Below, piece by piece: positions 3,474 to 8,630 of a stretch of 64,000 nucleotides of DNA; the stretch's first letter is position 1, and every line of letters starts with the position of its first letter. The position numbers and the translations under genes are program-made. The notes under the pieces are model-generated. The model did not search any database. It had not been told where the DNA came from and was given only the letters and a program-made list of their open reading frames with translations. This DNA comes from Phallusia mammillata. Lineage: Eukaryota. The stretch lies in NCBI GenBank assembly GCA_965637545.1, contig OZ281497.1, positions 17,174,001-17,238,000 of the forward strand. The letters run 5' to 3'.

Positions 3474-3966
3474 TTACCAGCACCTATGACTACAATCACC
3501 ACAAGTTGGACGGTAAAGTAAAACTCTTCTTCTAAATGAGCGCTTTTCTCTGACGTTTACTGCACGTTGGACGTTTCCTGAGATATCTTCTTCCATGTCT
3601 TTTGTGGAAATGTTTCGTTTTGATAACACAGTTGTGTAACATTTCTTGATTAGTTTGTTGCATGCATGTCTGTGCCAAATCAAACAACGTCGTCTGTAGT
3701 TGCGTCCTGCTCCTGGCTTTCTTAACCAGGATCGCTTGAACCTAAAACGGTTAAATAACATAACTATTTGATTTGTTCAATTTTTCACAAAAACAAAAAA
3801 TGTAAATGTGAAAAAGATGTATTGAAAATGAAATTACAAACCTTTCGAGCACGTCCATTGCATCTTGTGTTTTTTCTGTCTCCTCGTTATCTCGCAGCAC
3901 AGACGCATCGCATGCAAGTAAACACAAGAGCAGGGCGAAAATACCGGCAACAAATACTCCCTTCAT
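3474..3966 (-). CDS. Secreted prepropeptide A (130 aa): signal, pro-region, cationic 3-Cys peptide, spacer, cationic 3-Cys peptide
   Basis: Exon 1 3966-3842 (MKGVFVAGIFALLLCLLACDA..., hydrophobic signal), 100-nt GT-AG intron, exon 2 3741-3474. Convertase-type sites RFKR, SKR and REKR. TATA box upstream and AATAAA (minus strand, 3408-3413) downstream. Paralog at 6707-8630. Confidence 0.9.
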
Positions 3967-4041
3967 TTTAGTTTCGCCTAATTTGAAATGTTCGATTGAT
4001 AATCTCTGTTAGGTTGATGGGGCTAAAGAACACGCTGCTGC

Positions 4042-4048
4042 TTTTATA
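4042..4048 (-). promoter_or_regulatory. TATA box of prepropeptide A
   Basis: TATAAAA on the minus strand, about 76 nt upstream of the ATG at 3966. Confidence 0.55.
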
Positions 4049-4143
4049 TTCCCTGCCACTGGCCTTATCAAATAAAATTTTGCATAATTACCAACCGATG
4101 CTGTGCGTTTCTCATAAGAGTCGATTTGGAAATGTTCTCGACA

Positions 4144-4208
4144 GTTTAGCCTCGGAATATGAGAAACGCGTATTTCGTAAAGCTTCCCTGATATCTGCCC
4201 GTAACATA
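4144..4208 (+). repeat. About 65-bp element, copy 2, between prepropeptide A and the methyltransferase
   Basis: 42/46 core identity to 496-561. Confidence 0.8.
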
Positions 4209-4541: not shown

Positions 4542-5525
4542 ATGTCGCCAAAACGTGATATCACAAAAGCACGTCTTCACTATCGTAAGCTATTGAATTC
4601 AAGCCAGTCATTGATCGTACAAAAGCAACAGAGGGTACAAAGTAAAATGCAGAGGTATTATGAAGACAAGGAAATTGTTCAAGAATATTCCAGGTATCGT
4701 CCGCTACTTTCCGACCAGGTTAGGGTTGCAGTGATGGATTACCTTAAATCCAAAACAAAAGGCTGCCAGGGCAAATACGACATGTTACTGGACGTTGGCT
4801 GTGGCGGGGGCCAGGCAACCCAGCTCTTTGCCTCAGACTTCAAAAAAGTAGTCGGAATCGACGTCAGTCAAAATCAGATAGATGACGCAAACCGCAAAAA
4901 TTGCTATGATCACGTGAAGTATCAGGTAGGCCACGCCGAAAAGCTCGATTTTGAAAATGACAGTGTTGACCTGATAATTAGCGTCGAAGCTGCTCATTGG
5001 TTCAACGTTCAGGAATTTTTGGCAGAAGCGTTCAGGGTTTTGAAACCTGGCGGTTGTATCGCGGTCATTGGTTACTTGCCACCGACCTTTATTCCACAAT
5101 CGTATCTTGGAGACAAAGCAAAAGTCGCCGCAAAGCAATTAGAAATCGGCTATTCCTTTCTCAAGGAAGTTCCGAAAGAGAGAATGCAAAGTTATCTTCA
5201 CGTTGCTTCGCGTTACCAAAATGTGCTCGATTTGATGCCAGTTTACGACAAATGTCGTTTACCCGACCTCGAACTATCATTTAAGTGGAGCAAGAAACAT
5301 GTCCTCGGTTTTATGCGATCCATGGATATGGTTGTACATTTAAATGAGCAGCGATACAACGAGGTTCTACAGAAAAACGGCGAAGTCACTTACGATGATG
5401 TAAAAAAGATCGACGTGGCGATCGATTACTTCAACATAATAGCAAAAGAATTTTCTGAACTTCAAAATCCCGATGCAACCGTTAATGCTCTGTTCCAAGT
5501 TTTTACTGTCGCTGGGTCAAAATAG
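4542..5525 (+). CDS. Class I SAM-dependent methyltransferase (Methyltransf_11/25-like, small-molecule type), intronless
   Basis: Uninterrupted 327-aa ORF with Y..YRP N-terminal motif, LLDVGCGGGQAT (motif I), VVGIDVS, SVDLII and EAAHWF...FLAEAFRVLKPGG. The true start may be the internal Met of MQRYY (4647). Confidence 0.92.
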   Translation: MSPKRDITKARLHYRKLLNSSQSLIVQKQQRVQSKMQRYYEDKEIVQEYSRYRPLLSDQVRVAVMDYLKSKTKGCQGKYDMLLDVGCGGGQATQLFASDFKKVVGIDVSQNQIDDANRKNCYDHVKYQVGHAEKLDFENDSVDLIISVEAAHWFNVQEFLAEAFRVLKPGGCIAVIGYLPPTFIPQSYLGDKAKVAAKQLEIGYSFLKEVPKERMQSYLHVASRYQNVLDLMPVYDKCRLPDLELSFKWSKKHVLGFMRSMDMVVHLNEQRYNEVLQKNGEVTYDDVKKIDVAIDYFNIIAKEFSELQNPDATVNALFQVFTVAGSK

Positions 5526-6616
5526 ACCATAAGCAAATTCATTGGAATTAAACACTCATGCTTACCACACTTTTTATTCAGATTATTCATTCGTCAGCAC
5601 ACCATTTACAGTTTTATTTGTGTATGTACGATTGTTTGTGTTGAAGTTGCTATTGTGTTGCGTGAAAGTTTTAATGTAACATACATGATGCAGTGTGACA
5701 TTTTTAGTGCACTAAAACATACAAACATTAGGATGGAAGAAAAATCCGTTTCGCAATAATTGTAGATTTGTAGATAAAGAAACTGATTTCAAATCTAGTG
5801 TCAATAGACCATTGTTACAGCTTTATATCATTTTTTTTCGAATAACATTGTCTTGGTTGTTGAAGCTTTAATTTTTAATTCATTACCAGCAACGCCTTGG
5901 CGTTTCTCCCAGTGAATAATATGAATTTATTTCGAAAGATCATTAGACGCCTCTTTGGTTAGTTTATTAACTCGAAAGACTGTAGACATGCCGCAGACTT
6001 TCACTGTGCGACCGCATTTTTGCAAACGAAAATTGCTAATACAGATTATAATGTAATTAGTACCATCGCAAGACGGCGTATTTTGGTCACAAGGTTGTGG
6101 GTTTAAACTTCTTTTGGGCAACTTTTGTTTCCCTGAGCTAGTAAATTGAACAGCATTAATGTTTTCCTACCAATTTGAAAAAAAATAAAAAAAGAAGAAA
6201 TATTTAAACAGACCCGCGACAGGCAGGCTTCTGAACGGCGAACTTCACGTTTTCAGGAGAGCCGAGGATAAAATAAATAATAAAACAACGAAATGTACCT
6301 ATGGCTGACACTATAAACTTATGTCGGAAAGTAATGCTTCAAATTACAACCAACACTTTGGTGTGAAGACACTGCGTCAAAATAAAATATCCAAGTTATG
6401 TTCTTCCGGAAGTTTCTTAGTTGCCCATTACCAATAGGTAAATACGAAACGATCAACCCTTACTTTTCATTACAATTAGTAATAGCTTAAAACAAGGTAA
6501 TTATCGGCGTTATGCAATCAAATCTATTCTTGGACGTCTCGACTATTTTTAAATTAGGCAGTGAAGAGAAACGACAAAATATGTCGGGTATAACCAATAC
6601 ATGCCAGGGGTAAACG

Positions 6617-6623
6617 TATATAA
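6617..6623 (+). promoter_or_regulatory. TATA box of prepropeptide B
   Basis: TATATAA about 84 nt upstream of the ATG at 6707. Confidence 0.55.
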
Positions 6624-6706
6624 GCTACTAAAATCTGCGTTCTCAACATAAGTTCAACATTAAGTTACCCACCAATAGAAAACAGATAAATTTCAATCGT
6701 GAAGCG

Positions 6707-8630
6707 ATGAATGGAATATACGTCGCGAGTCTTTTTACGTTGCTTTTTTGCTTGTTTGTGTGCGAAGCATCAGTGTTAAGAGGAAAAGAACAAACTGCTG
6801 GAGAAAATCTAGAGTCAATAGACGTGCTCGAAAGGTTTGTAGAACTTTTATCATTGTAAACCCATGAATACACTGTTGCTGCCAGGCATAACGTATTAAC
6901 AGAATTTTTAGCTCTTCCGGCAGTTTTTTATTGTAATATGCCAACGTTTCGATGTCCCATACGAAACACCTTCATCAGGGTAATGACATACAATGCAAAC
7001 ACAAGTTATTATAAAGCGAAAAGGGCGGCGAAACACACACAAAAAAGGCGATAGAAATAACGCAGTTCGCACCAATGGTCGTGTGATAACACCTGGCTCA
7101 ATGGTGCAAAAGCGACCGATAAGTTATCGGCATTAGAACGTCCGTTTTAACGTTCATCGTGTTGGTGTGAGAATGTATGTTCCACGACTCCAGGAAACCT
7201 CGCTTGTGAAAATCGGTTTCTCTAGCTAACACCTGGGCAGCAGAGAAGTTTATGGTGTGACCGAGGGTAGTAGCATGTTGTGCTAATGCCGATTTTTTAG
7301 CATCTTTCTTGGCTACATCCCTCTCGTGTTCTTTACGGCGCGTATTCAGAGATCTTCCCGTCTCGCCAATGTAAATCTCCTTGCACTGTTGACATGGGAT
7401 CGCGATCCCAGNNNNNNNNNNNNNNNNNNNNNNNNNNNNNNNNNNNNNNNNNNNNNNNNNNNNNNNNNNNNNNNNNNNNNNNNNNNNNNNNNNNNNNNNN
7501 NNNNNNNNNNNNNNNNNNNNNNNNNNNNNNNNNNNNNNNNNNNNNNNNNNNNNNNNNNNNNNNNNNNNNNNNNNNNNNNNNNNNNNNNNNNNNNNNNNNN
7601 NNNNNNNNNNNCACCTGGGCAGCAGAGAAGTTTATGGTGTGACCGAGGGTAGTAGCATGTTGTGCTAATGCCGATTTTTTAGCATCTTTCTTGGCTACAT
7701 CCCTCTCGTGTTCTTTACGGCGCGTATTCAGAGATCTTCCCGTCTCGCCAATGTAAATCTCCTTGCACTGTTGACATGGGATCGCGATCCCAGTGTTAGC
7801 TAGAGAAACCGATTTTCACAAGCGAGGTTTCCTGGAGTCGTGGAACATACATTCTCACACCAACACGATGAACGTTAAAACGGACGTTCTAATGCCGATA
7901 ACTTATCGGTCGCTTTTGCACCATTGAGCCAGGTGTTATCACACGACCATTGGTGCGAACTGCGTTATTTCTATCGCCTTTTTTGTGTGTGTTTCGCCGC
8001 CCTTTTCGCTTTATAATAACTTGTGTTTGCATTGTATGTCATTACCCTGATGAAGGTGTTTCGTATGGGACATCGAAACGTTGGCATATTACAATAAAAA
8101 ACTGCCGGAAGAGCTAAAAATTCTGTTAATTGTAAACCCATGTAGTTGTTAAAAGCGACCGGCTCTAACTGTTTTCGGGATTTTTATTTGTTTCATCACA
8201 TTATTTTATATCTTTTTCATGTTTTCGGCAGTAATGTACTTACTATATGATTGATAAAGCATGTCGAGTTTTAAGATTTTATACATAAGTTATTTGTCGT
8301 AAGAACCATCCACCGTTAGTTTAAAAAACAACATATTGTCACTACCCCAACTTGTATAGGTTCAAGCGATCCTGGTTAAGAAAGCCAGGAGCAGGACGCA
8401 ACTACAGACGGCGTTGTTTGATTTGGCACAGACATGCATGCAACAGACTCATCAAGAAATGTTACACAACTGTGTTATCCAAACGAAGCATCTCCTCCGA
8501 AGACACGGAAGGGAATATTAAAATAAACATGCAGCCAATATCTGACAACGTTAGAGAAAAGCGCTCATCAAGAAGAAGAGTTCTACTTTACCGTCCAACT
8601 TGTGGTGATTGCAGTCATAGATGCTGGTAA
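6707..8630 (+). CDS. Secreted prepropeptide B (132 aa), paralog of A
   Basis: Exon 1 6707-6834 (MNGIYVASLFTLLFCLFVCEASVLRGKEQTAGENLESIDVLER), phase-2 GT-AG intron at the same position as in A, exon 2 8360-8630 (FKRSWLRKPG...CGDCSHRCW). AATAAA near 8750. Confidence 0.9.
6937..6991 (-). ncRNA. Minimal hammerhead ribozyme motif in the Penelope pLTR (left arm)
   Basis: Reverse complement of the copy at 8034-8088. Confidence 0.6.
7412..7611. other. Assembly gap (200 N) flanked by identical 182-bp direct copies (7230-7411 and 7612-7793)
   Basis: N run. The duplicated flanks suggest overlapping contig ends at a hairpin, not a real duplication. Confidence 0.85.
8034..8088 (+). ncRNA. Minimal hammerhead ribozyme motif in the Penelope pLTR (right arm)
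   Basis: CTGATGA (8047-8053), stem II GGTGTTTC/GGGACATC with a GTAT loop, GAAAC (8075-8079), palindromic AACGTT, and TATGTC/GGCATA distal pairing. Hammerheads are an established feature of Penelope-like element pLTRs. Confidence 0.65.

Follow-up and report, generated by a model that had tools for sequence, protein, structure and literature searches.

A 64,000-nucleotide stretch of the genome of the ascidian Phallusia mammillata (the window; C4:17174001-17238000, on contig OZ281497.1, in a genome of 240 Mb) contains two small genes, A on the minus strand and B on the plus strand, which point away from each other and flank an intronless methyltransferase open reading frame (ORF; Table 1). In the precursors that both encode, a hydrophobic N-terminus, assigned by eye as a signal peptide, and an acidic pro-piece (together of net charge -5 in A and -4 in B) are followed by a cationic segment (chain 1) with 10 Lys/Arg, no Asp/Glu and three Cys residues, a Lys-Arg (KR) site, a spacer and a short C-terminal segment (chain 2), also with three Cys residues. 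Both introns split, in phase 2, the Arg codon that opens the RFKR sequence; TATA boxes are present at 4048 (A) and 6617 (B), and AATAAA/ATTAAA motifs at 3413 and 8752. The layout proposed for both genes in a first-pass annotation of the window, including the chains, the basic sites and the 3+3 arrangement of Cys residues, proved right in all its counts. Its description of them as two paralogs did not hold, in that there are 20 copies in the genome.

Table 1. Positions in the window of genes A and B, their parts and the ORF between them
Feature	Position	Strand	Remarks
Gene A	exon 1 3966-3842, exon 2 3741-3474	minus	130 amino acids (aa), two exons
Gene A, TATA box	4042..4048	minus	upstream
Gene A, exon 1	3842..3966	minus	predicted signal peptide (~residues 1-21) and acidic pro-piece
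Gene A, intron	3742..3841	minus	100 nt, GT..AG, phase 2, within Arg codon
Gene A, chain 1	3621..3731	minus	37 aa, C-x7-C-x6-C; RFKR before it spans the splice
Gene A, KR site after chain 1	3615-3620	minus	
Gene A, spacer	3540..3614	minus	25 aa, REKR at end
Gene A, chain 2 and stop	3474..3539	minus	21 aa, C-x2-C-x3-C-W
Methyltransferase ORF	4542..5525	plus	S-adenosylmethionine-dependent, intronless; Pfam Methyltransf_11, E 3.5e-25; between A and B
Gene B	exon 1 6707-6834, exon 2 8360-8630	plus	132 aa, two exons
Gene B, exon 1	6707..6834	plus	predicted signal peptide and acidic pro-piece; TATA at 6617
Gene B, intron	6835..8359	plus	1525 nt, GT..AG, phase 2
Gene B, chain 1	8370..8480	plus	37 aa
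Gene B, KR site after chain 1	8481-8486	plus	
Gene B, spacer	8487..8564	plus	26 aa, REKR at end
Gene B, chain 2 and stop	8565..8630	plus	21 aa

Expression, copies and relatives

Both genes are real, and at least A is expressed. Contigs of two runs from two studies (X2 and X3) skip exactly its intron, with CT..AC ends, the short side of the joints being 24-25 letters only and the 'RNA' type of the runs being a program's guess; no such skipping is seen in contigs of X1 or of the DNA-like run X15, i.e. two of the four runs compared skip. The first-pass annotation had held that a lack of spliced transcripts would speak against its reading, and for gene A spliced contigs are present. Most of exon 2 is without contig cover in X1-X3, the spliced joint of gene B is not listed, and one of the copies on C1 is without contigs in any of the four runs; these blanks carry no weight. 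The X2 and X3 contigs also hold the end of the gene B intron unspliced onto exon 2. The same intron carries, at 6854-8142, an insertion with inverted halves and an assembly N gap, bounded by 13-bp target duplications at 6854 and 8130; it contains a coding remnant that we take to be GIY-YIG-like and Penelope-like.

Among database proteins only P0001 (Phallusia mammillata, 'uncharacterized protein LOC100187420') is close. It corresponds exactly to exon 1 of A joined to exon 2 of B at the same junction, and is either a chimera of the assembly or an allele inverted between the oppositely oriented copies A and B. The proportion of nonsynonymous differences between A and B is 0.01-0.02 in the chains versus 0.20-0.28 in the signal, pro-piece and spacer, and that of synonymous differences is 0.12 and 0.29 in the chains versus 0.74-0.78 elsewhere (crude counts over few sites). 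Homogenisation extends to the synonymous sites of the chains, and it therefore appears that the chains are kept alike partly by gene conversion as well as by selection, and their near-identity is not independent evidence for the layout.

By single-member genome searches and motif scans of the retrieved stretches, 20 copies, a lower bound, were located at six loci. Four lie in or close to the window (A, B and two relics), one each at C4:21.06 and C4:23.09, ten in a tandem array at C1:29.20-29.23 Mb, and two each at C1:18.89 and C1:34.64. Fifteen of the 20 give intact spliced models, two of which are protein-identical; one has two intact cysteine exons, with exon 1 not found in the stretch searched; and four are broken or partial. 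One intact three-exon copy in the array (L040:2207-3186; C1:29.202 Mb) has an in-frame deletion of Cys1 and Cys2, leaving four Cys residues, and is as such a natural probe of disulfide connectivity. Birth-and-death evolution is indicated by the array, the broken or partial copies, this deletion variant and the conversion between A and B; a tree of the family core resolves little apart from placing A and B together on a long branch.

Just to the left of the window (L006, C4:17173616-17173681) lies a deletion relic of gene A, in which the A promoter and start codon are fused to the chain 2 end. Some 25 kb upstream, a duplicated GNAT-like gene accompanies an orphan, degraded A exon 2, beside oxidoreductase-like exons.

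Beyond this genome, three proteins were retrieved at E<=0.001 when 1.84 billion representatives were searched with a family profile, i.e. P0001, the Logan protein P0002 and P0003 from Clavelina lepadiformis. A chain 1 profile added H2ZPD3 of Ciona savignyi (P0005; E 9.6e-7), which is automatically named '60S ribosomal protein L34' in UniRef, a label without Pfam support; P0005 has eight Cys residues, two of them an additional pair within its long, basic chain 2. Conservation between the C4:23.09 copy and P0002 is 76% in chain 1. These searches are insensitive, because a broader profile missed P0003 even with P0003 in the query, and the range of relatives is therefore a minimum. The Ciona/Phallusia split is placed at 285 +/- 37 million years ago (PMC5899321). 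The family is shared by Phallusia, Ciona and Clavelina, and is old, expanded and apparently undescribed.

A six-cysteine framework around a variable spacer

The comparison that carries the analysis covers 17 proteins, i.e. 14 of the models (the deletion copy being left out) with P0002, P0003 and P0005; with some nine of them being closely related tandem copies, the number of independent lineages is nearer eight. All 17 have the C-x7-C-x6-C block, and the six Cys residues are invariant in the 14 chain 1 and 14 chain 2 exons as well as in P0002, P0003 and P0005. Chain 1 opens with C-G-x-x-L/M in 13 of the 17, a His follows Cys3 in 14, and in 16 a KR lies eight residues past Cys3, within a conserved LxKR that is followed by Ser, Asp or Asn. 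The stretch from this KR to the next basic site (10-33 residues) is of net charge <=0 in 16/17; beyond it come an Arg cluster and C-x2-C-x3-C-W, <=3 residues from the C-terminal end, the latter motif being present in all 18 sequences. A phase 2 intron precedes chain 1 in 15/15 models, and a phase 1 intron lies within the spacer in 11/15, the four models without it being A, B and the other two C4 copies. Because the framework recurs in 15 gene models and three proteins of other assemblies, A and B are not chance ORFs, and the two-chain precursor layout of the first-pass annotation, with six Cys residues and basic sites around a variable spacer, is strongly backed family-wide.

Other features are confined to some members. 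A, B, P0002 and the C4 copies have canonical R-x-K/R-R sites. Chain 2 of the C1 tandem copies carries a net charge of +14 to +17, and in the C1 copies and P0005 the part past residue 24 has very long Arg/Lys runs and a net charge of +22 to +37. The most derived members are A and B, which lack the Gly-x-x-Leu and the His; of the 17, these two alone start with SWLRK and possess a Gly-Arg site. The earlier arguments from SWLRK (styelin D, cecropin P1), from Trp2, which is brominated in styelin D and centrocins, and from amidation at Gly-Arg hence do not concern family features and, in the case of the styelin/cecropin likeness, cannot be extended to the family.

Known peptides and a putative two-chain product

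The framework was unmatched in every library searched, in agreement with the first-pass view that the cysteine pattern belongs to no recognised family; Pfam, PDB, the ESM Atlas and the literature gave no described family with the same Cys spacing. In Pfam, exon 2 of A or B has no match at E<=10, and there is nothing meaningful at E<=1 for seven aligned members or P0005; PDB sequence and profile searches gave weak unrelated matches only. The best ESM Atlas candidate, DUF4543/C17orf67 (0.82), was rejected as being below the 0.9 bar, with structure rows at template-modelling scores <0.4, and a second member gave no usable Atlas match.

That the family has already been described under a gene-model name appears very improbable. 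Members are public as uncharacterised proteins, and the name LOC100187420 suggests a Ciona gene; however, databases call them 'uncharacterized' or 'unnamed' or give them an incorrect automatic name, and a literature search including the LOC number, accession and family motifs, with most subscription journals and the antimicrobial peptide (AMP) databases outside its scope, found no description. Family identifiers were not found in the supplement of PMC7401272, though supplements of other papers might list members by gene-model identifier. A haemocyte peptide in PMC10888236 is, from the text available, unrelated to the family. A genome-wide Ciona AMP screen discarded candidates that contained Cys or exceeded 100 residues (PMC7387483), so the family could have been missed there.

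By what is described of them, the known cationic peptides each share part of the arrangement. Styelins, cecropin P1 and the linear Ciona AMPs have a signal peptide, a cationic mature part, an anionic piece and, in some cases, an N-terminal Trp, but are cysteine-free by the definition in PMC7387483, in contrast to the six Cys residues here. Turgencins A and B from Synoicum turgens are cationic helix-loop-helix peptides with six non-adjacent Cys residues in nested C1-C6/C2-C5/C3-C4 bonds (PMC7024374); they share with the family an ascidian origin and a C-x2-C-x3-C end, i.e. the last two Cys intervals only, but are single chains of 35-36 residues with an eight-residue loop, their first Cys residues are spaced x3, x4 rather than x7, x6, and their C-termini are amidated, whereas the family ends in Trp-stop, none of the 17 having a Gly behind the closing Cys-Trp. 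Centrocins (sea urchin) and halocidin (Halocynthia aurantium) are, like the predicted product, two disulfide-linked cationic chains, with a single disulfide and, in centrocin precursors, anionic propeptides (PMC10608444). The family is set apart from them, by descriptions rather than by sequence comparison, by its six Cys residues, 3+3, at fixed spacings. In centrocins the interchain piece is excised. To our knowledge, two-chain peptides made by excision of a connecting piece are rare, and the antimicrobial ones described have one disulfide. Judged from its sequences, the family would work most like a two-chain defence peptide, and it belongs to none of the families tested.

The reading that we favour, though we give it slightly less than an even chance, is that convertases excise the spacer to leave a disulfide-linked cationic heterodimer in host defence. 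The hydrophobic N-terminus would route the precursor into the endoplasmic reticulum, where the spacer would tether the two Cys blocks while three disulfides form. Furin-type cuts at RFKR (A/B) and REKR or R-x-x-R, with a dibasic cut at LSKR (the conserved LxKR), would then remove pro-piece and spacer and release the two-chain product (predicted net charge +14 in A/B), the acidic pro-piece and spacer masking charge until release and killing being directed at membranes or polyanions. Given the odd number of Cys residues in each chain, at least one inter-chain bond (one or three, by parity) would be expected if all six are oxidised. A nested ladder of C1-C6, C2-C5 and C3-C4 is a geometric guess, prompted by the position of the chain 1 Cys residues (j, j+8, j+15) on one face of a predicted helix, with a partner extended at i, i+3 and i+7; turgencins have this connectivity. 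The host-defence reading draws on the charge, the anionic balancing pieces and the birth-and-death evolution; anionic pro-pieces are used by ascidian and sea-urchin AMP precursors (PMC10608444; PMC7387483, Table 1).

Two AlphaFold runs make chain 1 a helix, with a predicted local distance difference test score of ~70 there, at low overall confidence (predicted template-modelling scores 0.27 and 0.38), too poor for an insulin fold to be judged from them. A prediction of the complex of chain 1 with chain 2, made without alignments, gave no verdict, at a score of 0.02, and a fold search with the first AlphaFold model found only generic coiled coils (residues 1-54, Z ~5).

Several points weigh against the two-chain defence peptide. 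The AlphaFold runs make the Cys stretch of chain 2 helical, not extended, contrary to the ladder guess, and the joint loss of Cys1 and Cys2 from the deletion copy would suit a C1-C2 bond instead. The helical hydrophobic moment of the chain 1 core is 0.31-0.43 in A/B and the C4 copies versus 0.06-0.13 in the C1 tandem copies, and this low predicted amphipathicity argues against a simple membrane-lytic action of every member. No R-x-K/R-R precedes chain 1 in the C1 copies, and one of the spacers is basic (+4). The orthologue-like conservation between C4:23.09 and P0002 and the intron phases would also suit a hormone, and cleavage, bonding and activity are predictions from sequence.

Some of the same observations may point to a basic secreted or granule protein that is uncut or merely trimmed and binds sulphated glycans, the tunic, egg coats or metal, its basic clusters being binding surfaces rather than cut sites. 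We regard this as unlikely, though not negligibly so. The long Arg/Lys runs of the C1 copies and P0005, and the weak amphipathicity on C1, are consistent with it, and the C-x2-C and the His after Cys3 (14/17) could bind metal; yet a fixed LxKR followed by a freely varying acidic spacer, together with the R-x-K/R-R sites, is best explained by processing.

If the chains are cut, it may be that they separate or self-pair, as homodimers, with a free thiol or by cysteinylation, and that further cuts at Arg clusters give short peptides, including an amidated N-terminal octapeptide of A/B. Ascidian homo- and heterodimeric AMPs with one disulfide are known (PMC10608444), and chain 1 of A/B has internal Gly-Arg and RRR. 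The improbability of this outcome reflects the co-conservation of six Cys residues over three ascidian families and the gain or loss of Cys residues in pairs (eight in P0005, four in the deletion copy), as expected of one fold; the Gly-Arg, moreover, is present in 2/17 only.

A different origin, unlikely in our estimate but deserving of weight, would make the family an offshoot of insulin/relaxin, with chain 1 as a B chain enlarged by one turn and one Cys, the spacer as C-peptide and chain 2 as a shortened A chain, acting as a hormone or paracrine ligand or co-opted for defence. The order signal-B-KR-C-basic site-A is present at the level of sequence, the opening C-G-x-x-L/M is like the CGxxL of insulin B chains, and the spacer phase 1 intron of 11/15 models and the multicopy clusters resemble those described for the superfamily (proinsulin, dilp7 orthologues and starfish multinsulins). 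Ambulacrarian insulin-like genes are all reported to carry a phase 1 intron within the C domain, joined in dilp7/multinsulin genes by a phase 2 intron, the multinsulins being multicopy and clustered (PMC8286064; the figure with the phase 2 position was not visible in the version available). At C7:729 kb (L144, minus strand) this genome has a conventional insulin/relaxin-like gene, with, by eye, an apparent GC-AG phase 1 intron following its B chain; for tunicates, three insulin-like genes of the conventional kind are listed (PMC12702675).

By contrast, the A-chain signature CC-x3-C-x8-C (PMC6586643) is absent from all members, which have C-x2-C-x3-C-W instead, and the Cys residues are divided 3+3 rather than 2+4. 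Chain 1 has three Cys residues over x14 (x7 and x6), the B chain from the same genome two over x11. PF00049 has no match in the family while finding three other loci in the genome; the family profile aligns with the B chain from this genome at a probability of 0.6% (E 0.093); and family profiles find no PDB insulin chain at E<=10, whereas that B chain, as a control, finds 7/7 insulin/IGF chains. A and B have neither the CGxxL motif nor the spacer intron, agreement of intron phase is common by chance, and the extreme charge, far above that of insulin/relaxin, is unusual for a hormone. Somewhat less likely again is the stronger form of this proposal, that of an insulin-superfamily branch at least ~285 million years old which would have kept the B-C-A logic and intron phases but rebuilt its disulfides as 3+3 and expanded into a cationic effector family. 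Such a branch would be either a hormone scaffold put to antimicrobial use or a ligand class new to the sister group of the vertebrates.

For the favoured two-chain defence peptide, exact masses are predicted for blood, tunic or neural extracts. The family, with its 20 copies in one genome, may offer a new antimicrobial scaffold that tolerates salt, and it allows one to ask if the layout of proinsulin can be reused with new disulfides.

Neighbouring genes

The methyltransferase between A and B belongs to a family with 58 matches in 17 clusters genome-wide. A paralogue, 38% identical, lies at L045:4028-5233 (C1:18.884-18.885 Mb), 1.2 kb from the C1:18.886 copy of the peptide family; under uniform placement, a second such neighbour among the five other loci has P ~0.01. 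A methyltransferase neighbour is missing at 4/6 family loci, the flanks retrieved for the 15 other methyltransferase clusters contain no family member, and the two linked methyltransferases are not sisters in a FastTree tree. On account of these empty flanks, the tree and the lack of a signal peptide by eye, a role as a peptide-modifying enzyme was not adopted; the link is unproven and is left unexplained, outside the proposed mechanism. The methyltransferase expansion is striking in itself and may serve secondary metabolism.

Tail to tail with gene A, at 1084-2862 of the window, lies a multi-exon gene that by eye resembles a GNAT (arylalkylamine acetyltransferase-like; Pfam did not confirm single exons); with its duplicate and the orphan exon 2, the observation also covers L050:46-2502 and L002. 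About 4 kb from the C4:21.06 copy is a copper type II monooxygenase exon (L053:4984-5310; PF01082, E 5.6e-9). Elsewhere in the window are a CHHC zinc-finger exon (12944-13291), an intronless GAPDH ORF (59367-60368; Pfam E 9e-72) and a thioredoxin-like exon (60734-61096).

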